Of a stretch of DNA of 21,784 bases, positions 1 to 20,701 are shown piece after piece (positions within the stretch are counted from its first letter, which is position 1; each line of letters opens with the position of its first letter). This DNA comes from Candidatus Zixiibacteriota bacterium (GTDB lineage: Bacteria; Zixibacteria; MSB-5A5; CAIYYT01), in assembly GCA_040235515.1 (NCBI GenBank), contig JBECKX010000106.1, positions 1 to 21,784 on the forward strand. The letters run 5' to 3'. The notes under the pieces are model-generated. The model was not told the DNA's origin and did not search any database. It saw nothing but the letters and a program-made list of their open reading frames with translations. The position numbers and the translations under genes were made by a program.

Positions 1-15
1 ATTGTGTTTCCTCCT
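1..15 (-). promoter_or_regulatory. Strong Shine-Dalgarno site and first two bases of a probable start codon for a gene beyond the window edge
   Basis: Minus strand reads AGGAGGA-AACACA-AT at positions 15 to 1; the G of ATG would lie outside the window. Same layout as the tssC start (GAGGAAACA-ATG). Confidence 0.65.
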
Positions 16-158
16 AAGGCAACTGGTTTATTTTAGTTCAATCTTTGTTCTGTTTAGAACCTCAATCACTTTCAAACCAACTGTCGCGTCAGCCGGGTGG
101 TGGTTCGCAAAAAAGTCGTCCCGATCAGGCCTTATTTAGCCGGCCCGGCGCAGGAATC

Positions 159-1568
159 TTACTTGACCCCAACCTGCCCCGACTCATCCTCCATCGCTTC
201 AAGCTTCACGACATACTGCTTGATAGGAGTCTTGGTGTTGAGCGCCACCTCCAGGATCATCTGCTGATTTTCGATCATCTCGTTGGTAGCGATCACGTTA
301 CAGGTGAAGCCGTTGATGACGCGGTTCCGCTGCATCAGGCTGAGGAACTTGTTGAGATCGTTGTCGATCGCCTTCTTGAGCTTCTCGTCGAAGCCCTTGT
401 AAACCTGCTGGTTCAGATAGTTGCGCATCACCTTATATATATAGTCATAGGTGCGCTTGATCGTATAGTTGCGGAACTTCGGATCCTTCGCCAGCGTGTC
501 GGCGCCCATCGCGACAACATCCCCGACATCACCCTGCCAGTTGAGAACGCAGTTAACACCCTTCTCATTCATCTTGGTGTTCTTCTTCTCATTCAACTTG
601 ATCGCCGTCGACTGGACTCCGGCGAGCTTGCCGTTCGCCTTACCGGCTGTCGGCGCCTGGATACCTACCTCGTTGTCGTTCTTGTAGATCGCTCCGGCTA
701 CGAGGGAGGATGGCGGCAGCCACAACGGCTTGTCATCGAAGCGGCTCTCCGGCTTGTCAGCCTTGACGTAGTTGCCGAATACCGAGATGTAGGCCTTGTA
801 CTCGTCGTTACCGCGCATGTCGTCGTACGACGGGTCGTCCAGCTCCTCGTTCATCTCTTCGTAACTGTCAAAGTGTTTGAAATCGGTCAGCACATGCAGT
901 TTGTTCGGCAGGCCCATGTCGCGCGCGACCGTGTCGATATCCTTGACGCTGCCGAGATAACCGGGAATGCAGCAGAGCGAGTAGCAGTTGCGGATATCGT
1001 AGAGACCGTAGATATCGTGAATCTGCTGATTGATCGCTTCAAACTTCTCCTTGTCATTCGGATCGGTCAGATCGGAAATACCGACATTGCCAAAATAGGC
1101 ATAAACCTCTGAATCGGGAGTCGCCTTGGCGTTCTGGAAGAACAGGTCGACGCCACGATATGCGGTTTCCAGCGGGCGGATAGCCTCATGGATCGCCGCC
1201 ATGTTGCTCGAGAGGTTCTTGTCCGCCTCCTTGATCATGTTGTCGAGCTTGTCCGCGAACTCATCCGAGGTGACATCGTTGCTGCTGATCAGATCGGCCC
1301 ACAACTGCAGGCGTTGCTTCAGCTGCTCGCGACGATCCTTGAATTCGTCCGATGTCAGAAACTTATTGTACGACTCATGCTTGGGATCAAGGAACTTGAC
1401 ACCCTCCATGTGCAGGCCGTCCTGGCTCTTGAAATGGGAGAGGTGATCCTTGATCAACTCATATTTGACAAAACCCTCACCGAGGATATCCTTTAGGTCG
1501 GCTTTTTCTTTAACCTCGGCCTCGGCTGTCGGCTTTTGTTCTTGTAGATCTTTTTCTTCGTCAGCCAT
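159..1568 (-). CDS. tssC: Type VI secretion contractile sheath large subunit, Bacteroidota-type (DUF5458-like)
   Basis: 469 aa. Segments LQLWADLIS, LETAYRGVDLFFQN, YSLCCIPGYLGS, LTDFKHFD, LPPSSLVAG and RTYDYIYKVMRNYLN resemble Bacteroidota TssC as I recall it. GAGG RBS; directly downstream of a tssB-like gene. Confidence 0.85.
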   Translation of the reverse strand: MADEEKDLQEQKPTAEAEVKEKADLKDILGEGFVKYELIKDHLSHFKSQDGLHMEGVKFLDPKHESYNKFLTSDEFKDRREQLKQRLQLWADLISSNDVTSDEFADKLDNMIKEADKNLSSNMAAIHEAIRPLETAYRGVDLFFQNAKATPDSEVYAYFGNVGISDLTDPNDKEKFEAINQQIHDIYGLYDIRNCYSLCCIPGYLGSVKDIDTVARDMGLPNKLHVLTDFKHFDSYEEMNEELDDPSYDDMRGNDEYKAYISVFGNYVKADKPESRFDDKPLWLPPSSLVAGAIYKNDNEVGIQAPTAGKANGKLAGVQSTAIKLNEKKNTKMNEKGVNCVLNWQGDVGDVVAMGADTLAKDPKFRNYTIKRTYDYIYKVMRNYLNQQVYKGFDEKLKKAIDNDLNKFLSLMQRNRVINGFTCNVIATNEMIENQQMILEVALNTKTPIKQYVVKLEAMEDESGQVGVK

Positions 1569-1586
1569 TGTTTCCTCGCTGTAAGG

Positions 1587-2039
1587 TTAAAGTTGATCGA
1601 TGTAAGCTTTCACGACCTGCAGGAATTCCTGCTTCTTGCCTTCATCCGAAAGCATCTTCTTCAGCTTCGAATTCGGCTTCTCCAGCAGGTTCTGCAGATT
1701 GCGCAGTATCTCTACCTCGTTGTACTTCTCGCGCAGGTAGTCAATCTTGTTGATGATTTCGAGCGAGCCGAAGTCTTTCATCGAATTGAACTCGAGATCG
1801 ACCGTTTCCTCGGAACCATCCTGCTTGTTGACTGTCACCTCCTGCGACGGGCGATAGTGCGCGAATACCTCTTTGAGGCTCTTGCACTTGGTCAACTCAG
1901 GCTCCTGCTCCTCCTGCGAGTTGAGCTTGGTGAGATACACCATCTTGTTTGACGGCAGCAGATCCAATGGGACAGAATCACTTTTGTCCTTGTATTCGGT
2001 TGTGCCGATATGAGGTGCGGCAATTTTATAATCCGCCAT
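1587..2039 (-). CDS. tssB: Type VI secretion contractile sheath small subunit, Bacteroidota-type
   Basis: 150 aa. LKEVFAHYRPSQEV...DGSEETVDLEFNSMKDFG followed by a helical C-terminus matches the T6SS-iii TssB pattern. GGAGGT RBS; 18 nt from tssC. Confidence 0.8.
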   Translation of the reverse strand: MADYKIAAPHIGTTEYKDKSDSVPLDLLPSNKMVYLTKLNSQEEQEPELTKCKSLKEVFAHYRPSQEVTVNKQDGSEETVDLEFNSMKDFGSLEIINKIDYLREKYNEVEILRNLQNLLEKPNSKLKKMLSDEGKKQEFLQVVKAYIDQL

Positions 2040-2124
2040 GGGACCTCCACTGTGGGTTATTAAAGTGTGTTAATTGCGTTCTATCTGTAATTCGGTCTGA
2101 CATACATACAACGGTCTGTCGCAC

Positions 2125-2145
2125 GCCGGACTAACGCGGTCCGGC
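2125..2145. other. Intercistronic stem-loop between the Clp ATPase C-half gene and tssB
   Basis: Perfect 7-bp stem GCCGGAC/GTCCGGC with a 7-nt loop; no U-tract on the minus (coding) strand. Confidence 0.5.
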
Positions 2146-2181
2146 AATTTCACGTCGTACTCTTCACTCCACCAACTGAAC

Positions 2182-3264
2182 TTACAGCTTCACCAACTCA
2201 AACGTGTCATTGGCGAAGCGTACCTCTACTTCCGATCCCTCGGGAAAACGTCCGTCGATGATTCCAATCGAAAGCGGGTTGAGAACCTCTTTCTCAAGGA
2301 CCCTCTGCAACGGACGCGCACCCATCTCAAAGTTATACCCGCGCTTGGCGATTTCGTCGCGCGCATCCGGGCTCACCTTGATGGTCATCTTCTGTTCCTT
2401 GAGAATCTTATTGATCACATTCAATTGGATATTCACGATTGTGTTGATTCCCACCTCGGTCAGCGGGCGGAAGATAATCCACTCAAGGCGGTTGAGAAAC
2501 TCCGGTCGGAATTTTGCCTTGAGAATGTTCATCATTTCGTCGCGATCCACCGGCTTCTCCTCGCGGTAGCACTCAAGGATATATTGCGACCCGAAGTTTG
2601 AAGTCAGGATCACGATCGTGTTGGTGAAATCGATGGTGTTGCCCTGACCATCGGTGAGGCGGCCGTCGTCCAAAAGCTGAAGCATGATGTTAAACACATC
2701 GGGGTCAGCCTTCTCGACTTCGTCAAACAGCACGACCGAGTAAGGGTTTCTCCGGACGCTCTCGGTCAGGAGTCCGCCGGCGTCATAGCCCACGTAACCG
2801 GGGGGCGCGCCGATCAATTTCGCCACGGAGTGTTTCTCCATGAACTCCGACATGTCAAAGCGCACCATGTTCTTCTCGTCATTGAAAAGAAACTCCGCCA
2901 GGGTCTTGGCGAGCTCTGTCTTTCCGGTGCCGGTCGATCCGAGGAACAGAAATGATCCGATCGGTCGATTGTGTCGCTTCAGCCCGGAGCGGGAACGGCG
3001 CACCGCTTCAGAGATCGTCTTAATCGCCTCCTCCTGGTCCACCACTCGCTTGCCGAGATGATCCTCGAGCTTAAGCAGCTTCTCGCGTTCATCCTGAAGC
3101 ATCCGGTTGACGGGGATCTTCGTCCAGCGCGAGATCACGTAGGCGACATCCTCCGGACCCAGCTTCTGATCCTCAGCCATCACGAACTTCTCGAGGCTCG
3201 ACAGCTTCTCCAGGTTCTCCTTGAACTGCTGGATTTCGTTCTGTTCAGTGCGTTCAGTTTCCAT
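2182..3264 (-). CDS. ClpB/ClpV-family AAA+ ATPase, C-terminal half (NBD2 plus small C-terminal domain)
   Basis: VISRWTKIPV linker, Walker A GSTGTGKT, pore loop GAPPGYVGY, Walker B LFDEVEKA, FRPEFLNRL and GARPL. Own AGGAG RBS at 3278-3274 before ATG at 3264 (TTG at 3267 is an alternative start). Confidence 0.9.
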   Translation of the reverse strand: METERTEQNEIQQFKENLEKLSSLEKFVMAEDQKLGPEDVAYVISRWTKIPVNRMLQDEREKLLKLEDHLGKRVVDQEEAIKTISEAVRRSRSGLKRHNRPIGSFLFLGSTGTGKTELAKTLAEFLFNDEKNMVRFDMSEFMEKHSVAKLIGAPPGYVGYDAGGLLTESVRRNPYSVVLFDEVEKADPDVFNIMLQLLDDGRLTDGQGNTIDFTNTIVILTSNFGSQYILECYREEKPVDRDEMMNILKAKFRPEFLNRLEWIIFRPLTEVGINTIVNIQLNVINKILKEQKMTIKVSPDARDEIAKRGYNFEMGARPLQRVLEKEVLNPLSIGIIDGRFPEGSEVEVRFANDTFELVKL

Positions 3265-3278
3265 CAATCATCACTCCT

Positions 3279-4700
3279 CTAAACCCTGCCCGTCCAGAGC
3301 GAGAAGAGTTCATCAAATTTCTCGTTGAATGCGGCAATCTTACCTCTGACTTCACCATCCAGCCCTTCTTCGTTTTCGCTGTCGAAGGCACCGCCCAGGG
3401 TCTTCTTGATCTCCTCGGCTTCTTGCTTCAAAGGCCCGAGACCATTCTTCGCCCTCGTGCAATTCAGGCGAAATGACGCAGAGGCTTCATCGAGCAGGTC
3501 GATAGCTTTGTCGGGAAGAAAACGGTCGCCGATGTAACGCTGCGACATCCGAATCGCTTCACTGACCACTTCATCGGGAATCGACAGCGCGTGGTGTTTG
3601 CCGTATACGTCACGAACGCCCTTCAGAATCTCGAACGCTTCATCGAAGGTGGGTTCTTCCACCATCACACGCTGGAACCGGCGGTCAAGCGCCTTGTCTT
3701 TCTCTATGTACTTGCGGTACTCTTCAAGCGTCGTCGCTCCGATCACCTTGAAAGCTCCTCTGGCCAGTGCCGGTTTGATCAGATTGGCGGCGTCCATACC
3801 GCCACTGGGGTTGCCGGCACCCACAATCGTATGAATCTCATCGATATAGAGGATCAGGTTGCCTTTACCCTTGGAGAGTCGGGAGATCAGATTGTTGAAG
3901 CGTTCTTCGAATTCACCCTTGTACTTCGCTCCCGCGACCAACTGCCCCAGGTCAAGCGCCAGGATCGTCGCGTCGTGCAACTCAGGGGTCGTCTCTTTGT
4001 TCGCGATCTGAATCGCCAGACCCTCCACGAGTGCGGATTTGCCCACTCCCGGAGGACCAACCAGAATCGGGTTGTTTTTGCGACGGCGGATCAGCACGCG
4101 AGAGATGTTGTAGATATCCTCGGTGCGTCCGAAAAACTTGTCAAAATCACCCTTGCGCGCCTTCTCGGTGAAGTCGGTGCAGTACTTGATTCCCTCTGCG
4201 CCAGCTGCCTCAGACTCCCCCTCCGTCGAAACAACACCACCGCCGGTTGTGATGGTGTCAAGCGCGGTGATATCGGCGAGGGCATCGATGATCTTGCCTT
4301 CGTCGAAGTCCATCCGGCGTTTGATCTGCTCACTCAGCGGCGAATCTGGCCCGACGAAAACCATCAGGATATGCTGCGGGCCCACCTCGGCGTCGGAATA
4401 CTTATCTTTGATCTTGGTCGCCCCTACCAGCAAAGACTGCAGTGCGGGTGACGCGACTGGTTTTACTTCATCTGCCGCTGATTTGCCCAATTTCGACAAT
4501 TCATCGGCAACGAGGTTTTCGAAGTACTGCGGTTTCTTGCCAAGCTGCTTGAGCAAACCGCCCAGGGAATTCGATTCGTCACGAAGTAGTGCCAGGAAGA
4601 GATGCTGAGGACGAATTTCCGCGTGAAAATAGCTTTTTGCCAGCTCCTGCGCCCGCCTGATAGCGTTCTGCAGGTCCGACGAGAGGGAACCTAAATCCAT
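3279..4700 (-). CDS. ClpB/ClpV-family AAA+ ATPase, N-terminal half (Clp-N repeats plus NBD1); TssH-like by context
   Basis: Two Clp-N repeats ([21 protein letters not shown]), [18 protein letters not shown]alker [19 protein letters not shown] Walker [10 protein letters not shown] and [12 protein letters not shown]. Confidence 0.9.
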
Positions 4701-4758
4701 GCTTTTCTTTCGTGGTTATGGTTGTGTGTCAACGCTTGCGCTCGCGTTTAGAACAATA

Positions 4759-4787
4759 AATTTACCCAGCCCCCCAACAACTGTCAA
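4759..4787 (-). promoter_or_regulatory. Sigma70-type promoter for the clp-clp-tssB-tssC operon
   Basis: Minus strand TTGACA (4787-4782), 17-nt spacer, TAAATT (4764-4759), about 60 nt upstream of the ATG at 4700 in an AT-rich intergenic region. Confidence 0.65.
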
Positions 4788-5018: not shown

Positions 5019-6053
5019 TTAGCGGCCGAACAATTTGTCGATAAACCCCCGTTTCCGCGTACGATTGCTCTGGAATGCTCCGACACGCAGGAAGTCCGCG
5101 ATAGCGTCCTCCGGCCGGTCATAGGAGCTTCCGAGAAAGTAATCCTGAAGTCGACTCTCAATATCTACTATCGTTGCCGGACGATTCCCCGGCTCGTGTT
5201 CCATCATCGTTTCCGCCAGCTTCCCGAGTTGCTTGAGCAACCATTTTATCATACTGTCGCGGTAGACCGGGTAGAGTTCGGAGTACTTCAGACGGCTATC
5301 CTCGCGAACATTTTGTCGCACTTCATAGGCGTTGTGTCCGGTGAATGGAATGCGGCCGGTCAGCATTTCGAAGCAGATAAGCCCGAGCGCGTAGATATCG
5401 GAACGGCGGTCGGCAAAGCCTGCTTTGAGCAGTTGTTCCGGAGAGGCGTAAACACTGGTTGAGTAAGGCAACTCGATCTGCTGTCTGTCAGCAAAATCGC
5501 TCAGCGCCCGCATATCGATGTCGGTGAGATAAACGCGTCCAGTCGCCGTAATCAGGACATTCTCAGGCTTCAGGCTGCGGTGCAACGGAATCAGGTTCCC
5601 GAGTCCCGGCGATGGTCTCAGGCCATGGATCTCGTTTAGCCCGGTAGCTATCTGCGCGGTGATCAACGCCGCCAGATCGGGATGAAGCGGCGCGTGATTG
5701 GCGATAATGCTCCTGAGGCTGGATGCTTCAACGAACTCGAATTCATAATAGAGGATCGATGAATGCATCCCGGTACGCTCGAAGTGCAGAATGTGGCTGC
5801 CCCGCATCTCAGCCAATACTCGTCCCTGCCGATGGAATTGCTCACCGAACTCCGGGTTCTCGCAGAGGCGGCGGCGCATCACCTTGAGCCGCACAGGCGA
5901 GTTGGTGTCGGTCCTGACCGCACGATAGCTGAATCCAACCGCCCCTTCCCCGATGATATCTTTGTTCAGCTTGTAGCTCTGGAACTGCTCCGGCAAGTTC
6001 GGCGCGTCCTGCGCCTCAAACCGGGCATACAGCTCGTCCATCTCGTTTGTCAT
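5019..6053 (-). CDS. Hanks-type Ser/Thr kinase-fold protein with degenerate catalytic motifs (probable pseudokinase)
   Basis: IGEGAVG glycine loop, VRLK, HRSLKPENVLI, YASPEQ and DRRSDIYALG...EMLTGRIPF. Start set at ATG 6053 because the 6260 extension overlaps the upstream gene and is not kinase-like. Confidence 0.85.
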   Translation of the reverse strand: MTNEMDELYARFEAQDAPNLPEQFQSYKLNKDIIGEGAVGFSYRAVRTDTNSPVRLKVMRRRLCENPEFGEQFHRQGRVLAEMRGSHILHFERTGMHSSILYYEFEFVEASSLRSIIANHAPLHPDLAALITAQIATGLNEIHGLRPSPGLGNLIPLHRSLKPENVLITATGRVYLTDIDMRALSDFADRQQIELPYSTSVYASPEQLLKAGFADRRSDIYALGLICFEMLTGRIPFTGHNAYEVRQNVREDSRLKYSELYPVYRDSMIKWLLKQLGKLAETMMEHEPGNRPATIVDIESRLQDYFLGSSYDRPEDAIADFLRVGAFQSNRTRKRGFIDKLFGR

Positions 6054-11654: not shown

Positions 11655-13718
11655 ATGATGAAATCGCGAAATCTACTATGGATAAGTCTGCTGGTCGCCG
11701 GGCTCTTACTCTTTTCGTGCGCATCCGATGCAACGCAGGGAGAGGGGAGCAGCACTCAAACCTCGGAGAGTCAGGCGACAGAGAACGCAGAACCAGAGAG
11801 CGAGCCGGTTGTGCTGTCTGAAGAGCAACTGAACGGGTCACTTGATGCGCCCGATTTCCCCGATGGCGTGGAATGGCTCAATACCGGATTTCCGCTGGCA
11901 ATGGTTCAACTTCGTGGCAGCGTGGTGTTGCTCGATTTCTGGACCTTCTGCTGCATCAACTGCATGCATGTGCTGCCCGATCTCGCCCGGCTTGAGGAGA
12001 AATACAAGGATGACCTGATCGTCATCGGAGTGCACTCGGCGAAGTTCACCAATGAGAAATCGACGGACGCAATTCGTGAGGCAATCCTGCGCTATGATAT
12101 TCATCACCCGGTAATCAACGACGATCAATTCGAGGTCTGGAACCAGTATGGCATTCGCGCCTGGCCCTCATTCGTGTTGATCAATCCCGATGGCAAGATC
12201 ATCGGCACTCACAGCGGTGAAGGTATCTATGATCTCTTCGATGATGTCATCGGTCAGACGGTTGACTACTTCGGGAAGCAGGGTAAGCTGAAGCAGAAGC
12301 ATTTCCAGTTCGTCCGAGAAATCCAGATGTCGCAGCAACATATCCTCCGCTATCCGGGCAAAATCGTTGCGACGGAAGATGACAAACTGCTGATCACCGA
12401 CTCGAACAACAACCGGCTGCTCCTGGTGCGGCCCGATGGCCAGATCGAGCTGGTGATCGGCTCAGGCAAACAAGGCCTGGCAGACGGCAGCTTTGCAGAG
12501 GCACAGTTCAACAAACCACAAGGGGTTGTGCAGGATGGCGATAAACTCTACATCGCCGACACCGAGAATCACGTGATCAGAGTCGCTGACCTCGATGACC
12601 AGACGGTCAAGACCGTACTGGGCACCGGCAAGCAGGCCCGCCGCTACAATGTCAGTGGCAAGGGTCGCAATATCGCGCTCAACTCACCCTGGGATCTGCA
12701 ACTTGTCGCCGACAAGCTCTACATCGCGATGGCGGGGTCGCATCAAATCTGGGTTGCAGACACCGACTCGTGGGAGGCGAAGCCTTACGCCGGATCGGCT
12801 GCCGAGAACATCGTCGACAGCACGCTGCTGGATGCAAATCTTGCCCAACCGAGCGGCCTGACCACCGATGGAAAGAAACTATACTTCGCTGACAGTGAAA
12901 CCAGTTCGATCCGCTCAGCCGATCTCGATCAGAACGGTGAAGTGGAAACGATCATCGGTCAGGGACTTTTCGAATATGGTGACATCGATGGCACATTCCC
13001 GGATGCCCGCCTGCAGCACCCGCTTGGAGTTGTCTACCATGATGGCCTGCTGTATGTCGCCGATACCTACAATCACAAGATCAAGGTAATCGATCCCGAG
13101 AAGAAGTCTGCGACCACCCTTGCCGGTACCGGTGCTCGCGGCTGGAGAGATGGTGGTTTTACCCAGGCCCAATTCGATGAGCCCTCGGGACTCACCTTTC
13201 TAAATGGCAAGCTCTATGTCGCCGACGCCAATAACCATCAGATCAGAGTCCTCGACCCTGTCACGAAACAGGTCAGCACGCTGATGCTCAAGAATGTCGG
13301 TATGCTGGCCGGGCAGACGATGGACAACTTCGATGGCCGTATCATTGAAGTTCCGAAACGGATGCTGCACACTGGCAATTCCGCCGTTAGTTTCGCCCTG
13401 GTGATGCCGCCGGGGTATAAACTCAATCAGGAAGCCCCGTTCCATGTCGACTTTCATACCGAGAGCGATAACATCAAGTTTCGTGCTGATCCGAGCCAGA
13501 TTGTGCTCGACCGACAGAAGCTGACGTTCGAAATCCCCCTTGAGGTTGAAAAAGGTGATGCCGAAATTACGGTTGATGCAGTCGTCTATATGTGCGACGA
13601 GAAATCAGGACTTTGCCTGTTCGATAACTTCAGGATCAAGGTACCTTTTGAGGGTAGCGATAGCGGCGGTGGAATGTTCGGTGTCGCGGTTAACCTGCGC
13701 ACCAGCCCGAGGATGTAG
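11655..13718 (+). CDS. Lipoprotein with thioredoxin-like domain and NHL-repeat beta-propeller (NHLRC2/SOQ1-like)
   Basis: Lipobox LLFS-C, DFWTFCCINC, GVHSAKF and multiple LYIADTENH/LYFADSETS-type repeats; GGAGG RBS. Confidence 0.92.
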   Translation: MMKSRNLLWISLLVAGLLLFSCASDATQGEGSSTQTSESQATENAEPESEPVVLSEEQLNGSLDAPDFPDGVEWLNTGFPLAMVQLRGSVVLLDFWTFCCINCMHVLPDLARLEEKYKDDLIVIGVHSAKFTNEKSTDAIREAILRYDIHHPVINDDQFEVWNQYGIRAWPSFVLINPDGKIIGTHSGEGIYDLFDDVIGQTVDYFGKQGKLKQKHFQFVREIQMSQQHILRYPGKIVATEDDKLLITDSNNNRLLLVRPDGQIELVIGSGKQGLADGSFAEAQFNKPQGVVQDGDKLYIADTENHVIRVADLDDQTVKTVLGTGKQARRYNVSGKGRNIALNSPWDLQLVADKLYIAMAGSHQIWVADTDSWEAKPYAGSAAENIVDSTLLDANLAQPSGLTTDGKKLYFADSETSSIRSADLDQNGEVETIIGQGLFEYGDIDGTFPDARLQHPLGVVYHDGLLYVADTYNHKIKVIDPEKKSATTLAGTGARGWRDGGFTQAQFDEPSGLTFLNGKLYVADANNHQIRVLDPVTKQVSTLMLKNVGMLAGQTMDNFDGRIIEVPKRMLHTGNSAVSFALVMPPGYKLNQEAPFHVDFHTESDNIKFRADPSQIVLDRQKLTFEIPLEVEKGDAEITVDAVVYMCDEKSGLCLFDNFRIKVPFEGSDSGGGMFGVAVNLRTSPRM

Positions 13719-14708: not shown

Positions 14709-16013
14709 GTGAAGTTCAAACAATCTCTAACATTCTCCAAATGTGAGGTCAAAATGTTGGTGCGTCGATGCAGATCAGGACAAATCGCATCGTTGAGCAT
14801 ATTGACAAGCTTTCTCGCACTGCTGCTGCTCGGATGTGGCGATGGCGGCGTTGAGCCGCAACCCGTTCATCGTGAACTAACGCAGTTGGAGAAACAGCTC
14901 GTAAACTCCGGCAATGATTTCAGTTTCAAGTTGTTCCGCAAACTGGTCGAGATGGAGTCCCGGGAAGAGCAGCAAAACATTTTCGTGTCCCCCTTTAGCG
15001 TGTCGATGTCACTGGGCATGGTTTACAACGGTGCGGCCGGTGAGACAAAGACAGCGATGGAGGAGTGCCTCACACTCAGCGGCATGAGCGTAGAGGAAAT
15101 CAACCAGTCATATCAAAGCCTGATCGATTTCTTCACGCAGCTCGATCACTCGGTCACCGTCGATGTCGCAAACTCGATCTGGTACAGGCAGGATATGCCA
15201 TTTCGCCAGGAGTTCCTCGATCTCAACCAGGAATACTTCGATGCTGAAGTTGCCGGGCTCAATTTCAGTGATCCCCGCTCCGTCAATACAATCAACGATT
15301 GGGTCTCCTCAGCCACGAATGGTCGCATCCCGACTATCGTTGATGAGATCTACTCCAATGAAGTGATCTTCCTGGTGAATGCGATTTACTTCAAGGGGGA
15401 CTGGACCACCATTTTTGAAGACTCCAGGACCAAGCCGATCAGCTTCACCAAACCCGACAGCACCACGGTAACCGTCAACGGCATGCATATGTCGCATGCT
15501 CCAATGAAATTCATGGCCAACGATGATGTCACCGGGCTACAGATGCCGTATGGCGACGGCGATTTTGCCATGACCCTGTTGATGCCGCTCGAGGGTGTCG
15601 ATATCGATGCACTGCTTGCCAACCTGGATGAGCAGCTATGGCAGGAAATCCAGAGCTCAATGCGAGCTGGCAAGAACGATATCATGGTGCCCAGATTCAG
15701 GCTCAGCTACTCGCTGAAGCTCAATGATGTGCTTTCAGAACTCGGGATGGAGGTGGCATTCGACGCCGACCGTGCCGATTTCGATGGGATGTGCGAGGAG
15801 TGCGCCATCTATCTCAGTCGCGTAATGCACAAGACTTTTGTGCAGGTCGACGAGAAGGGAACCGAGGCTGCGGCGGCAACTTCTTCGAGCGGAGCAGTCG
15901 GCGCCGCTCCACCGATGTGGATTTTCAATCGGCCATTTATCTACGTGATCCATACCACTAACCCAGATGTGATCCTCTTCATGGGGAAGATGGTTGAGCC
16001 AGTCTGGGAGTAG
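14709..16013 (+). CDS. Serpin family protease inhibitor, lipoprotein
   Basis: NIFVSPFSVS, INDWVSSATNGRI, LVNAIYFKGDW, hinge VDEKGTEAAAAT and FNRPF. Lipobox LLLG-C; the true start may be ATG 14754. Confidence 0.95.
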   Translation: MKFKQSLTFSKCEVKMLVRRCRSGQIASLSILTSFLALLLLGCGDGGVEPQPVHRELTQLEKQLVNSGNDFSFKLFRKLVEMESREEQQNIFVSPFSVSMSLGMVYNGAAGETKTAMEECLTLSGMSVEEINQSYQSLIDFFTQLDHSVTVDVANSIWYRQDMPFRQEFLDLNQEYFDAEVAGLNFSDPRSVNTINDWVSSATNGRIPTIVDEIYSNEVIFLVNAIYFKGDWTTIFEDSRTKPISFTKPDSTTVTVNGMHMSHAPMKFMANDDVTGLQMPYGDGDFAMTLLMPLEGVDIDALLANLDEQLWQEIQSSMRAGKNDIMVPRFRLSYSLKLNDVLSELGMEVAFDADRADFDGMCEECAIYLSRVMHKTFVQVDEKGTEAAAATSSSGAVGAAPPMWIFNRPFIYVIHTTNPDVILFMGKMVEPVWE

Positions 16014-16080: not shown

Positions 16081-16205
16081 TGGAGGCCTTCCCCCTCGTT
16101 TTAGCTGTTGAACTCCCCGGTGCGATTTACTAACTTCGATCGAATCTGTAAACCTCTAACATCTGGAATATACCAGGCACGTAAGTGCAAAGGAGCTCTG
16201 ACTTA

Positions 16206-19200
16206 ATGATATCATCACAGCGAGATGGAGCCTCTGCTGTGCCGACGGGGTCGAAGATACACGCTTTGGCGAAGGTATTCGCCGCAGTAATCTTGTGTGC
16301 CGCTTTCCTCCTCTCGGCCGCCGCGTGGAGTGCTGAAACCACGCCCGAATATGGGATTCGTGACAAGAGCCCGACAGTGATGGCGTTCACGAATGCGAAC
16401 ATCGTGGCATCCCCCGCAACCACTTATCAGAACGCGACCCTGTTGATCAGAGATGGCAAGGTAGCGGCCGTGGGTACCAATGTTACCATACCGCCGGAAG
16501 CAATCGTGGTCGACCTGAGTGGCAAGACAATCTACCCCGCGTTCATTGACCCATTCACCGACTACGGAATAGAAAAACAGCGTTCGGAGCCACGCCGCGG
16601 AAACGATACGCCGCAGTACGAAGGCCACCGCGAGGGCGCCAACGCCTGGAACGACGCGATCCACTCGGAGATCGACTGGGTATCACAATTCAAGCCCGAT
16701 TCCGATGAGGCCAGGAATCTCGCCAAGTTCGGGTACGGCACTGTGCAATCCTGCCGCCTCGACGGGATCTTCCGCGGACGTTCCTTTGTGGCGACGCTGG
16801 CGCCGAAACTTCCGAATGATGTCATCCTGCGCGCCTACTCGCTGCCTTTCATGTCATTTGACAAGGGCTCATCCCGGCAGCAATACCCCTCCTCTCTGAT
16901 GGGGAGTATCGCGCTGATCAGGCAGACTCTCTACGACCTCGACTGGTACCAGAAGGCGCGTGCCGCCTACGCTCAGAATCGTGACCAGGAGATGCCGGAA
17001 TTCAACCGCGCGATCGAGGCGCTTGCCGACATCAAATCCCGAACGATTATGTTCGATCCGGGAGACAAGCTCTCGATTCTCCGTGCCGATGCGATCGCTA
17101 AAGAGTTCGGGCTGACCAACCTCTATCTCGGCTCAAACTACGAGTATGCGATCCTCAACGACCTGAAAGCCACCGGCGCCGCCCTGGTCTTGCCGCTTGA
17201 TTTTCCCGACGCGCCCGATGTCAAATCGCCCGATGATGCCGTCGCTGTCTCGCTTGCGGAGATGCGTCACTGGGAGATGGCACCCTCGAACGCCAAGCTC
17301 CTCGCCGACGCAGGAGTAGAGTTCGCATTCACTACCAACGGGCTTGATCGCGACCGCGATTTCTTCACAGCGCTGCAGAAAGTCGTTATGCGCGGGTTGA
17401 CCAAGCAGCAGGCGCTCGCTGCCCTGACCACCATTCCCGCGCGGATGTGCGGCGTTCAGAATCTCGTCGGCACCCTTGAACCGGGCAAGCTCGCCAGCTT
17501 CGGTGTCTACGACGGCGATATCTTTGACAAGACCAGAAAACTTTATTCTGTCTGGGTCGCCGGGGATGAAATCAAGCTCGATGATCTACCGCAGTTCGAA
17601 CTTCGTGGAACTTACAACCTCACCTTGGGCAACGATACCTGGGAACTGAAGGTGTCAGGCTCGGCAGAACGACCGCGCGGTAACCTGCAGGTTGGAGATA
17701 AGCGCGCTCGTATCGAGAACCTGGAGATTGATGGAAAACTGGTTCGCTTCACTATCAAGCTGGATACCGAACCATACAACGGTGTCGTTCGCTTCTCTGG
17801 TGAATCGGATGCAGGCGCCCTCGCCGGAGTGGCAGCGTTGCCGGATGGCTCGGATATCCCCTGGCGCGCAGAATTGGTCACTCCCTACGAGGAGGGTACT
17901 GCTGAAAGTGACAGGGAGGAAGGCGACCGTGAGGAACGCGGTGACTCCCCCTGGCAGCAATCCAGCGAAGTAAAGAGTGACCTTCCGCTGGTCTCGCGCC
18001 TCACCTATCCGAATCGATCCTTCGGTCTTTCGGAGCAGCCGCCACAGGAGGCGGTGCTTATCCAGAATGCAACGATCTGGACTTCAGAGGATGATGGCAT
18101 CCTTGAGGAGACAGACTTGCTCATCCAGAAGGGTAAGTTTACTCAGATCGGCAAAGATCTACCGGTGCCCGCCGGGGTCCGCATCATCGATGGCACCGGG
18201 TTGCATGTGACTGCAGGAATCATCGACGAACACTCCCATATCGCGATTTCGAGAGGCGTGAATGAAGGCAGCCACGCGATCACTTCGGAAGTACGCATTG
18301 GTGATGTCGTCAATCCTGAAGACATCAGCATCTATCGTGTCCTTGCCGGTGGGGCAACGATGTCGCAACTGCTTCACGGTTCAGCGAATCCGATCGGTGG
18401 CCAGGCGCAGATGATCAAACACAAGTGGGGACTCAATGCTGAAGGACTCAAGTATAAGCTGACTCCACCCTCGATCAAGTTTGCACTCGGTGAGAACGTG
18501 AAACAGAGTAACTGGGGAGAAAACTACAACATCCGCTACCCACAGAGCCGCATGGGAGTAGAGACCATTATGAAGGATGGTTTCCAGACCGCGGAAGAAT
18601 ATGAGAAGGAGTGGAACGATTACAACGCACTGAGCAACTCGGCGAAGGCAAAGACTGTTCCGCCGCGGAAGGATCTGATGCTCGATGCGCTGCTTGACAT
18701 CATTCGTGGCCGCATGTTTATCCACTGCCACTCCTACGTGCAATCAGAAATCCTGATGCTGATGCGATTGGCTGAAGAGTTCGGGTTCACGGTACAGACG
18801 TTTACTCATATCCTCGGTGGCTACAAAGTCGCCGGCGAAATGCGTGAACATGGCGCCAGCGCAGGCTCTTTCTCTGATTGGTGGGCGTACAAGTTTGAAG
18901 TCTACGACGCCAATGCATACAGCCCGGCGCTGATGGCCGAGAAGGGCGTCGTCGTCGGGATCAACTCCGATGATTCCGAGATGGCGCGCCGCCTCAATCA
19001 GGAAGCCGGCAAGTCGGTGATGTATGGCGGGATGTCACAGGAAGAAGCGATTAAGATGGTAACGATCAATCCTGCGATTCAAATGAGGATTCAGGATTAT
19101 GTCGGCAGCATCAAAGTTGGAAAGGACGCCGACTTCGCTATCTGGGATGGCAATCCTCTCTCAACCTACACCAAATGCCTGCAGACCTGGATCGAAGGGC

Positions 19201-19391
19201 GAAACTATTTCAGCTGGGAGAAAGACAAAGCAGAGCGTGAGGCGATCGCCAGGGAGCGCAACGCCCTGATTCAGAAGATACTCCAATCTGACTCGCCGCG
19301 CCGCGAGTTTGGCTCGCGCCGTGGCTACGAGGAAGAGGAGAGAGAATATCATTGCGATGACAACATCGATGTCTGGAGGTCGTTGAAATGA
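16206..19391 (+). CDS. Exported double-domain amidohydrolase family protein
   Basis: Two amidohydrolase barrels (IYPAFID...GTLEPGKLA and GIIDEHSH...HCH...THI...NSDD...GSIKVGKDADF) joined by a beta-rich linker. AGGAG RBS before ATG 16206; signal peptide. Confidence 0.9.
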   Translation: MISSQRDGASAVPTGSKIHALAKVFAAVILCAAFLLSAAAWSAETTPEYGIRDKSPTVMAFTNANIVASPATTYQNATLLIRDGKVAAVGTNVTIPPEAIVVDLSGKTIYPAFIDPFTDYGIEKQRSEPRRGNDTPQYEGHREGANAWNDAIHSEIDWVSQFKPDSDEARNLAKFGYGTVQSCRLDGIFRGRSFVATLAPKLPNDVILRAYSLPFMSFDKGSSRQQYPSSLMGSIALIRQTLYDLDWYQKARAAYAQNRDQEMPEFNRAIEALADIKSRTIMFDPGDKLSILRADAIAKEFGLTNLYLGSNYEYAILNDLKATGAALVLPLDFPDAPDVKSPDDAVAVSLAEMRHWEMAPSNAKLLADAGVEFAFTTNGLDRDRDFFTALQKVVMRGLTKQQALAALTTIPARMCGVQNLVGTLEPGKLASFGVYDGDIFDKTRKLYSVWVAGDEIKLDDLPQFELRGTYNLTLGNDTWELKVSGSAERPRGNLQVGDKRARIENLEIDGKLVRFTIKLDTEPYNGVVRFSGESDAGALAGVAALPDGSDIPWRAELVTPYEEGTAESDREEGDREERGDSPWQQSSEVKSDLPLVSRLTYPNRSFGLSEQPPQEAVLIQNATIWTSEDDGILEETDLLIQKGKFTQIGKDLPVPAGVRIIDGTGLHVTAGIIDEHSHIAISRGVNEGSHAITSEVRIGDVVNPEDISIYRVLAGGATMSQLLHGSANPIGGQAQMIKHKWGLNAEGLKYKLTPPSIKFALGENVKQSNWGENYNIRYPQSRMGVETIMKDGFQTAEEYEKEWNDYNALSNSAKAKTVPPRKDLMLDALLDIIRGRMFIHCHSYVQSEILMLMRLAEEFGFTVQTFTHILGGYKVAGEMREHGASAGSFSDWWAYKFEVYDANAYSPALMAEKGVVVGINSDDSEMARRLNQEAGKSVMYGGMSQEEAIKMVTINPAIQMRIQDYVGSIKVGKDADFAIWDGNPLSTYTKCLQTWIEGRNYFSWEKDKAEREAIARERNALIQKILQSDSPRREFGSRRGYEEEEREYHCDDNIDVWRSLK

Positions 19392-20701
19392 AGAAGCTCT
19401 TCCTAATCATGCTCAGCATGCTCTGCGCGACTTGCGGAATCGTGGTTGCCCATGACTATGTACCGGGAGCACCGCAGCAGTATCCAGTTCTGTTGCGCGG
19501 CGGCGATCTCTACACAGTCGCCAATGGTGTGATGCCAGCCACGGACCTCCTGTTTGAAAACGGCAAGATCACCGCGATCGGCAAAAACCTGCCTTTGCCT
19601 GCAGGCGTGGACTCTGTTGTAGTGATCGATGTCTCCGGCAAACGGGTCTACCCGGGGCTGATCGATCCCGTCTCCACTCTCGGACTAATCGAAATCGGCG
19701 CCGTGCGCGCTACGCGCGACAATGCCGAAGTTGGTGCGCTCACTCCGGAAGTACAAACCCACATCGCCTATAATCCCGATTCCGAGATCATCCCGACAAT
19801 CCGCTCGAATGGAATCGTGGCATCCCTGATCGCGCCGCAGGGCGGGACGATAAGTGGCAGGTCATCTTTGCTCTACCTTGATGGCTGGACCAAAGAGGAT
19901 GCCATGATCTCCGAGAACCTCGGTTTGCACATCAACTGGCCGCGTGCCGGCATTCAGACCGGTTGGCGTGCGCGTTCAACTCCCGAAGAACAGCGCAAGC
20001 AAAACGCCGAGAATCGCCGCAAACTCGAGGACGCTTTCAAGACTGCTCGTTCCTACTGGCAGGCGCGCAATAATGGCACACAACAGGAAATCGATCTCCG
20101 CTGGGAGGCAATGATGCCCCTCTTCGATAAGGAGATGACCCTGTTCATCAATGCCGATGATCTGCGCCAGATCCGGGAAGCGATCAGTTTTGTTGTGGAG
20201 AATGATCTGCGTGCCGTGATCGTTGGTGCGCGAGAAGCCTGGCGCGTTGCGGATTTGCTCGCCAGGCATCATATACCGGTCATACTCTCACGCGTTCAAG
20301 AACGACCCTACCGTGCCGACGACGACACCGACATAAACTTCAAGCAACCGAAGCTGCTGCAGGATGCAGGTGTGAAGTTTGCGATCGGGTATGGCCAGGG
20401 GAACTGGCAGAACCGCTCATTGCCGTTCCAGGGTGCTCAAGCGGTGGCTTTCGGTTTGGACCGGGCCGATGCGTTGCGTGCGCTGACCCTTTCGACTGCC
20501 GAGATCATGGGCGTCGATGATCGCCTCGGCTCGTTGGAAGTGGGCAAGGAGGCTACGATAGTTGTCTCTGACGGTGACATCATGGATCCGATCACGCAAC
20601 AGGTTACGCGGATGTGGATTCGCGGTCGCGACGTAGATCTCGATAATAAGCAGAAGGAACTTTATCGCAAATATCGCGCGAAGGAGTTCCCGATCGAGTA
20701 G
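19388..20701 (+). CDS. Exported amidohydrolase family protein lacking the HxH metal motif
   Basis: VYPGLIDPVSTLGL and LGSLEVGKEAT; signal peptide; ATGA overlap with the upstream stop. Confidence 0.9.
   Translation: MKKLFLIMLSMLCATCGIVVAHDYVPGAPQQYPVLLRGGDLYTVANGVMPATDLLFENGKITAIGKNLPLPAGVDSVVVIDVSGKRVYPGLIDPVSTLGLIEIGAVRATRDNAEVGALTPEVQTHIAYNPDSEIIPTIRSNGIVASLIAPQGGTISGRSSLLYLDGWTKEDAMISENLGLHINWPRAGIQTGWRARSTPEEQRKQNAENRRKLEDAFKTARSYWQARNNGTQQEIDLRWEAMMPLFDKEMTLFINADDLRQIREAISFVVENDLRAVIVGAREAWRVADLLARHHIPVILSRVQERPYRADDDTDINFKQPKLLQDAGVKFAIGYGQGNWQNRSLPFQGAQAVAFGLDRADALRALTLSTAEIMGVDDRLGSLEVGKEATIVVSDGDIMDPITQQVTRMWIRGRDVDLDNKQKELYRKYRAKEFPIE

Follow-up and report, generated by a model that had tools for sequence, protein, structure and literature searches.

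A sheath split between two proteins, the proteins TssK and TssG, and a ClpV ATPase that recycles the sheath are traits of type VI secretion systems (T6SSs). In the subtype found in Pseudomonadota (T6SS-i), the membrane complex consists of TssJ, TssL and TssM, and a passage in PMC3346141 describes ATPase activity of TssM. For subtype iii (T6SS-iii), passages in Bongiovanni et al. 2024 (PMC10781749) describe a distribution restricted to Bacteroidota, with no case in more than 20,000 genomes outside that phylum (the Bacteroidota set consisted of complete genomes), and a membrane complex that is unrelated to TssJLM and convergent with it; TssN is nearly ubiquitous in these systems, and TssO and TssR often escape profiles. 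A Latescibacteria single-cell genome has been reported to carry ten tss genes, in a passage that gives no subtype (PMC4454575). The window analysed here is the whole stretch of 21,784 nucleotides (nt) at the start of contig C177 of the host genome G000 (3.59 Mb in 218 contigs, at a completeness of 100 and a contamination of 0.16), and all of its T6SS open reading frames (ORFs) are on the minus strand. The sequence evidence supports the window as the sheath end of a T6SS locus that is sister to the T6SS-iii of Bacteroidota. The locus appears to belong to a conserved T6SS whose tail would work like that of T6SS-iii and which is probably a new subtype, with a predicted anchor remotely related to TssM. 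No prior description was found in the open-licence literature; listings in databases or supplements could exist.

The contractile tail and its two-gene ClpV

The features of the window that concern the system are as follows (E, expect value; aa, amino acids; SD, Shine-Dalgarno site):

1..17, minus strand: contig end, with the SD AGGAGG and the hcp/tssD start codon up to its second base
159..1568, minus strand: tssC, large sheath subunit of the T6SS-iii family, 469 aa (PF17541, E 1.2e-52)
1587..2039, minus strand: tssB, small sheath subunit, 150 aa (PF05591 VipA, E 1.8e-7)
2182..3267, minus strand: ClpV/TssH, C-terminal half: second AAA ring, preceded by an SD of its own (AAA_2 and ClpB_D2-small matches)
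3279..4700, minus strand: N-terminal half of ClpV/TssH, with Clp_N, first AAA ring, lid and start of the linker
4759..4787, minus strand: putative sigma-70-type promoter TTGACA-17-TAAATT, conserved in position in related loci
5019..6053, minus strand: cytoplasmic kinase-fold protein, likely a pseudokinase, 344 aa from the ATG at 6053 (Pkinase, E 2.7e-30)

The first-pass annotation of this DNA had likened TssC to the sheath protein of subtype iii rather than to proteobacterial VipB, and the family searches agree: against the E of 1.2e-52 with PF17541, the VipB model TIGR03355 gave only E 2.9e-4 and 19.8 bits (cut-off 271.5), i.e., the TssC of the window is not of the VipB type that characterizes T6SS-i. 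It is 24–28% identical to TssC from Bacteroidota plasmids, and tssB immediately precedes tssC across the mapped loci of the host family. The tssC gene is broken into two or three pieces in the genomes G009 (L133/L134), G163 and G166, which may reflect either sequencing indels or decay.

The annotation had proposed to look for tube, spike and baseplate genes to the left of the window. The start of hcp is at the contig end, where the last 17 nt are identical to the sequence upstream of hcp in the related loci L002/L013, and the Hcp of L013 matches PF17642 TssD at E 2.1e-24. The others are on contig C108, which opens inside vgrG and continues with tssE, tssF, tssG, tssK, a gene here called orfX, a gene for a GTPase with a transmembrane (TM) helix (GTPase-TM), a gene for a GAP1-N2-like protein of 297 aa and finally sec174, which is on the opposite strand. 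The gap between the end of C177 and C108 was estimated at about 1.1 kb by comparison with L013, and contigs from the sequencing run leave the hcp gap unclosed. VgrG, TssG and TssK were recognised by Pfam/NCBIfam models (TssK by TIGR03353, E 1.3e-13), VgrG scoring higher with NF033848 VgrG_rel than with the T6SS-i VgrG models; TssF gave only a weak match with TIGR02243 (E 1e-3) and was assigned by position as well; TssE matched no family, and its assignment is based on size and position. The genome thus contains spike and baseplate genes, and the possibility that it has no tube, spike or baseplate genes falls away. The order clpV-tssB-tssC-hcp-vgrG-tssE-tssF-tssG-tssK is the same in 10 mapped genomes of seven families, and orfX follows tssK in all of them. 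The features shared with T6SS-iii include a PF17541 TssC with a separate TssB, TssH/ClpV, VgrG with TssE/F/G/K, and a TssD-type (PF17642) Hcp, the last by way of L013, since G000 shows only the SD and two bases. Further likenesses are that the best plasmid matches of TssK are in Bacteroidota, that the Clp ATPase groups with Bacteroidota TssH, and that TssJ and TssA gave no match.

Two cassettes elsewhere in G000 are candidate effector-immunity sets, by their position and signal peptides. In one (C129:33097-40073, L145), a fusion of PAAR with a conserved domain is accompanied by an ORF of 1124 aa that matches OmpA weakly, by β-propeller and signal-peptide ORFs and by a DcrB adaptor. The other (C53:9868-14252, L146) encodes a conserved protein of 299 aa, an SH3-containing ORF of 799 aa and one ORF with a signal peptide. 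For bacteria of sediment and sludge, the system offers a likely untapped supply of antibacterial effectors.

The ATPase is encoded by two genes. The N-terminal half ends in a TAG 11 nt before the C-terminal half, which is in a different frame and starts at TTG 3267 or ATG 3264, and the break falls in the linker between the two AAA rings. The C-terminal half is 55% identical to residues 472–808 of an unsplit 813-aa relative, and in a tree of the second AAA ring (D2) it groups with Bacteroidota TssH, away from housekeeping ClpB/C (support 86); those halves that were examined retain both the Walker motifs and the pore loop. What had been taken for an unusual accessory turned out to be the common state: among 136 ClpV matches, 125 are split, five are fused and six end before the junction, i.e., 125 of the 130 that can be scored are split, the state having been read from open-frame lengths. 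An assembly error or frameshift was considered and ruled out because the C-terminal half has its own SD, the distance between the halves varies (11 nt here, overlaps in other genomes), and the split recurs at that frequency; a contig from the sequencing run, possibly of the source sample, also spans the junction without a gap. Judged from these sequences, the split is inherited. The fused forms (G052, G138, G139, G143 and G187) are scattered, some of them in genera that have split members, which suggests that the two halves work as one enzyme. Families f16 and f17 lie under the search cut-off, and in the three genomes read from them ClpV is a single 813-aa gene; the TssC and Clp trees disagree on the branching of these two families. 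A natural two-piece Hsp100 ATPase is available together with scattered fused forms.

Host phylum and ancestry of the sheath

The host lies outside Bacteroidota. A search of the host phylum, with room for 400 genomes, gave 285, and all listed rows were of the same class as the host or closer; Bacteroidota is a far larger phylum than this. RpoB of G000 is 81% and 67% identical to that of two Zixibacteria-titled genomes and 58–61% identical to that of a Latescibacterota-titled genome, the named homologues are mostly from Zixibacteria, and no SusC was found over the cut-off in G000. By marker and homologue evidence the phylum is very probably Zixibacteria, a placement that is less firm than the exclusion of Bacteroidota.

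PF17541 TssC was found in 145 of the 285 genomes of the phylum (107 of the 198 good ones), including all 20 other members of the host family, and in none of the genomes of 13 of the 20 families. Trees of TssC were built with FastTree (86 rows, including 47 'rep' rows largely without a taxon label) and with IQ-TREE (37 of those 86 rows), rooted on the sheaths of extracellular contractile injection systems (eCISs), with T6SS-i included and T6SS-ii left out. The host-phylum clade, which takes in one Eisenbacteria and one Krumholzibacteria sequence and, in the larger tree, one from Latescibacterota, is separate from the clade of all eight named Bacteroidota TssCs, and this separation has moderate support: 97 in FastTree, and 91 by the Shimodaira–Hasegawa-like approximate likelihood ratio test (SH-aLRT) in the quick tree. 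In the approximately unbiased (AU) test, forcing the host clade together with Runella was rejected (p-AU 6e-5), as was forcing it together with six core Bacteroidota (p-AU 5e-8). Neither a Bacteroidota host nor a TssC within the Bacteroidota clade, both of which are features of T6SS-iii, is therefore found here. The trees place the host clade beside the named Bacteroidota and not within them, and, with two nestings rejected and a host from outside that phylum, the case that the first-pass annotation had named as a refutation, a Bacteroidota contig with a nested TssC, does not hold. The idea of a deep-branching relative of T6SS-iii in another lineage is supported as regards the lineage and the sister clade; the system is no rare oddity but is found in half of the phylum.

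The system reaches other phyla, i.e., the Latescibacterota-titled genome (L028/L036), which also has OrfX and the GTPase, Krumholzibacteria (P0022) and Eisenbacteria (P0205 and P0084). The TssC of P0022 nests within the host-phylum clade, which suggests transfer, and that of P0084, the second Eisenbacteria protein, branches deeper. Loci L013-L021, L026, L030 and L031 are titled Ignavibacteria, and their TssC is identical or nearly identical to that of Zixibacteria-titled records, so that these titles look like placeholders.

A predicted three-protein membrane anchor

TssN, the membrane hub of T6SS-iii, was found in none of 156 genomes of at least 95% completeness, with a positive control of two out of two in what was a sequence-profile test only. 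TssJ (PF12790) and TssA (PF06812) were found in none of 21 family genomes, the Escherichia coli control being over the cut-off, i.e., the TssJ lipoprotein and TssA of T6SS-i are also missing. In G000, there was no match for DotU (PF09850) or for TssO and TssR, the last two searched in this one genome and without a positive control; no candidate for TssP or TssQ was recognised in the mapped loci, where no family search for these two was made. The locus is not regarded as a member of T6SS-iii, because two tested features fail, namely TssN and the host clade. It differs from T6SS-iii in its non-Bacteroidota host, in lacking TssN and any TssO match in G000, in a TssC that is 24–28% identical and forms a sister clade, in a ClpV that is usually two genes, and in having orfX, the GTPase-TM gene and sec174 after tssK. 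The absence of TssN and this other membrane gene set downstream of tssK go beyond what had been noticed from the window.

OrfX is a protein of about 305 aa (332 aa in G000) with a helical cytoplasmic domain and one C-terminal TM helix, and its model (predicted local distance difference test score, pLDDT, 86.5) has a helical domain and a long C-terminal helix that carries the hydrophobic segment. This is the topology of TssL. In a fold search with OrfX, DotU/TssL (4ACL) ranked 12 of 48161 (Z 6.2, root-mean-square deviation 4.0, 127 of 155 residues), a match that is called suggestive, since the guess preceded the search. Foldseek gave no match with E up to 0.001, and single-sequence HHalign of OrfX with Vibrio TssL, like that of the GTPase with Vibrio TssM, gave nothing. 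A TssL profile missed OrfX and matched six other ORFs of G000, which we take to be OmpA-domain proteins resembling long-form TssL.

The GTPase-TM protein has 630–740 aa (637 aa in G000). It carries G1, G3, G4 and G5-like motifs and a single TM helix at around residue 340, followed by a helical arm and a β domain, which make up a predicted periplasmic arm of 270–400 residues. It was found in 145 of the 285 genomes, 143 of them shared with TssC, and the four discordant genomes are 58–77% complete. When its profile was run against 321 reference T6SS ORFs, six of the seven TssMs took ranks 1–6 (E 7e-4 to 0.017), ahead of ClpV, ABC and ParA ATPases; the T6SS-i reference loci were L072 and L136-L140. 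Aligned by HHalign with the seven TssMs, the GTPase is colinear over 206 columns, which run from the G4 motif as far as the TM helix (E 2e-4, probability 46.6), and PF14331 IcmF_N gave a weak match in 33 of 50 GTPase members (best E 0.0017). The model has a complete small-GTPase fold, and the fold searches were filled by GTPases. The Walker B motif, which in DO-GTPases has a glutamate, is DYKGE in the seven host-family rows, and its Glu is kept in only one of nine other rows. In the loci of f1 and f16, two of the families, the GTPase gene is followed by a GAP1-N2-like gene (E about 1e-4 in 8 of 8 members, which is short of the cut-off); this gene is missing from the mapped loci of f5, f6, f8 and f10, where the GTPase and sec174 remain. 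From the order tssM-tagF, TagF was tried as an identity for the GAP1-like gene and is unsupported (HHalign E 0.51).

Sec174 is a small exported β protein of 174–175 aa, with a signal peptide seen by eye and no lipobox. Its gene was found in 29 of 30 GTPase loci; in G175 it follows the GTPase gene even 420 kb from the tail genes, and in G257 and G258 sec174-like ORFs (by eye) adjoin the GTPase gene, next to a PAAR gene. The nearest named Atlas cluster is TrbI/VirB10 (PF03743) at 0.78–0.79, TraM gave E 0.036, and comparison with sequences in the Protein Data Bank, plasmids and Pfam gave nothing usable. Prediction of a complex of the periplasmic part of the GTPase with Sec174 gave 0.34 against 0.00 for the best control, with contacts agreeing to at least 88% and a partner pLDDT of at least 78, which amounts to weak support; at 0.60 or under, 18 of 157 solved pairs attained this mark, and so did both of the mismatches that had passed.

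From these features, we infer that OrfX, the GTPase-TM protein and Sec174 make up a T6SS membrane complex of a third kind, with a distant relationship to TssM. TssK would dock on OrfX, which is TssL-like in position and topology, and also on the GTPase-TM protein, as a remote relative of the cytoplasmic domain of TssM; the periplasmic arm of the latter would reach Sec174, which would stand in for TssJ/TssR at the outer membrane, possibly in the form of a VirB10-like ring. GTP binding may gate assembly or firing, and once the sheath has contracted, it would be recycled by a single hexameric unfoldase formed from the two halves of ClpV; in the host family, the FHA protein and the pseudokinase (see below) may tune the system. 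The toxins would likely be fired into neighbouring bacteria. With T6SS-i, the locus shares the order of tssK, a single-TM helical protein and an NTPase-TM-periplasmic protein, the remote similarity of the GTPase and TssM profiles, and, in the host family, FHA and kinase-fold accessories. It differs from T6SS-i in its sheath family, in the lack of TssJ, TssA and DotU matches, in a GTPase without the N-terminal TM segments of TssM (630–740 aa as against 1150–1200 aa), and in Sec174, which has an ordinary signal peptide (by eye) and no lipobox.

Taken as a whole, a T6SS sister to that of Bacteroidota, with a predicted three-protein anchor of its own and likely firing toxins into neighbours, is the explanation that is held to be rather likely. 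Several observations weigh against it or against parts of it. The G000 assembly has no TssD match, hcp itself being unassembled there; the deep support in the TssC tree is moderate (SH-aLRT 91) and the outgroups are long branches; the Z of 6.2 between OrfX and 4ACL is within the chance range for helical bundles, and HHalign of OrfX with TssL profiles gave no similarity. The TssM profile misses the GTPase in G000 (best matches E >2), where IcmF_N (PF14331) has no match, and DO-GTPase2 (PF19993) fits the GTPases better than IcmF_N does (49 of 50 members, best E 2e-7, as against 0.0017). The GTPase gene is far from the tail locus in G257, G258 and G175, and the likeness of Sec174 to VirB10 is no more than a lead.

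An alternative is a working T6SS in which the GTPase and the GAP1-like protein are a captured DO-GTPase conflict switch that only regulates firing, the channel being formed by OrfX alone or by unrecognised genes. DO-GTPase2 is the best Pfam match of the GTPase, its small-GTPase fold is complete, its gene can sit away from the tail locus, and it is followed in f1 and f16 by a GAP1-N2-like gene, as in the GTPase-centric systems described by Kaur et al. 2020 (PMC7159879), a paper whose text does not mention T6SS or IcmF. The likeness to DO-GTPase/GAP1-N2 systems is thus a TRAFAC GTPase matching DO-GTPase2 with a GAP1-N2-like gene next to it in two families, whereas here there is a single GTPase that has a C-terminal periplasmic arm and is tied to a contractile tail, no zinc ribbons were seen by eye, and the GAP1-like gene is absent from most mapped families. 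An FNIII-repeat component and variable effectors are further marks of such conflict systems. The captured switch is unlikely, as the protein has a TM helix and a predicted periplasmic arm of 270–400 residues, is colinear with TssM up to the TM helix and stands at the position of TssM, and it stays together with sec174 in f5, f6, f8 and f10, where the GAP1-like gene is missing.

A contractile injector that is released or acts inside the cell (eCIS-like or T6SS-iv-like) and is merely tethered to the inner membrane has a good deal less to commend it and is judged very unlikely. It would be consistent with the best solved-structure matches of TssC, which are eCIS and phage sheaths (Afp3, E 1.8e-9), with the higher score of VgrG on NF033848 VgrG_rel, and with the fact that no known outer-membrane component was found; relatives of the sheath C-terminal fold and a VgrG_rel-type spike are also what eCISs (Afp, PVC) and T6SS-iv have in common with this locus. 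These systems have a single-chain sheath and no TssK, whereas the locus has separate TssB and TssC, TssK (E 1.3e-13), TssG, a dedicated ClpV and membrane proteins; in the trees its TssC goes with T6SS-iii, far from the eCIS sheaths that form the outgroup, and the PAAR, effector and signal-peptide cassettes fit contact-dependent killing with immunity genes. Least credible, and largely refuted, is an ordinary Bacteroidota T6SS-iii acquired by recent transfer, or a Bacteroidota/Ignavibacteria contig that was mis-binned or mis-labelled. In its favour, 10 of 19 related loci are titled Ignavibacteria or Ignavibacteriaceae, and one Ignavibacteria-titled record has an RpoB 92–98% identical to that of G000; these titles are read as loose, however, because an Ignavibacteria-titled TssC is identical to that of a Zixibacteria-titled record. 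A host phylum of only 285 genomes with all listed rows in the same class, the RpoB identities to Zixibacteria-titled genomes, the lack of SusC over the cut-off, the genome-wide use of SD sites (below), the rejected nestings and the absence of TssN all count against it.

The fullest form of the proposal, a new T6SS subtype in which a T6SS-iii-type tail stands on a third kind of complex, with a true GTPase related to both TssM and DO-GTPases spanning the inner membrane and a VirB10-like ring opening the outer one, is put forward tentatively and is somewhat doubtful. That half of another phylum has a sister lineage, in which T6SS-iii tail genes go together with an apparently TssM-related GTPase at the tssK-tssL-tssM position, bears directly on how phage-like tails became coupled to the envelope and on which anchor came first. 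If the proposal is true, the GTPase would be the link that shows TssM to derive from a DO-GTPase, and T6SS-i and T6SS-iii would descend from an ancestor with a TssL/TssM-like anchor, for which Bacteroidota substituted TssNOPQR. OrfX, the GTPase-TM protein and Sec174 are three small, expressible proteins for studies of structure and binding.

Expression signals and accessory genes

The putative operon promoter TTGACA-17-TAAATT, which had been read from the sequence, is present at 4787–4759. By count, such sites are within chance (four as against 3.9 expected in shuffles); by position, TTGAC[A]-17-TAnnnT recurs 55–62 nt upstream of the N-terminal clpV gene in 17 of 18 related loci, some of which are near-duplicates. 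In G000, 211 TTGACA-type promoters were counted where base content predicts 48, an enrichment that the Bacteroidota promoter pattern, in the form given by the first-pass annotation, does not show (12, as against 10.7 expected). The same source had seen canonical SD sites at most operon genes, and they are found at three of the four: tssB (GGAGGT), tssC (GAGGA) and the C-terminal clpV gene (GAGGAG), the N-terminal clpV gene having none. Across the genome, an SD 4-mer is present at -16..-5 in 617 of 1591 long ATG ORFs, as against 146 in a control window. The best RpoD match in G000 is a short sigma factor of 288 aa with regions 1.2–4 only (C16:7367-8233). A short form of this kind is found in Bacteroidota, so that the length of the sigma factor fails to separate the host from that phylum. 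Between tssC and hcp (window about 70–95, minus strand) there is a motif CGACAGTTG-N4-5-GAA, which is conserved between diverging flanks in L002/L013, L006 and L016 as well as in the window, and which is possibly an internal promoter or a regulator site for hcp.

The kinase-fold protein keeps the Gly loop and the VAIK lysine, and has HRS in place of HRD and DID in place of DFG; among six aligned orthologues, the catalytic Asp is present in one and DFG in none. It is an accessory at the level of the family: with an FHA gene, it lies 5′ of clpV in part of the host family only, the FHA gene preceding it in G015 and G023, and the kinase-fold gene is absent before clpV in L005/L006/L029 and in the other mapped families. 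The FHA gene of G000 is on C108 (17472-17813, L032), some 7 kb beyond the last of the T6SS genes. The reading of this accessory as a likely pseudokinase stands, with a range limited to the host family; its place at 5019–6053 is outside the stretch 159..4787 to which it had been assigned. It ends in a conserved amphipathic tail of the GFIDKLFG type (window 5022–5051, minus strand), which in our estimation resembles the membrane-targeting helix of MinD, and a regulatory role is a guess.

The plus strand of the window encodes, unrelated to the T6SS, an exported thioredoxin plus NHL-repeat protein (11655–13718). It also encodes a pair of exported amidohydrolase-family proteins (16185–20701; the first of the pair was scanned) and what is presumably, by its motif, a serpin-like lipoprotein (14709–16013).

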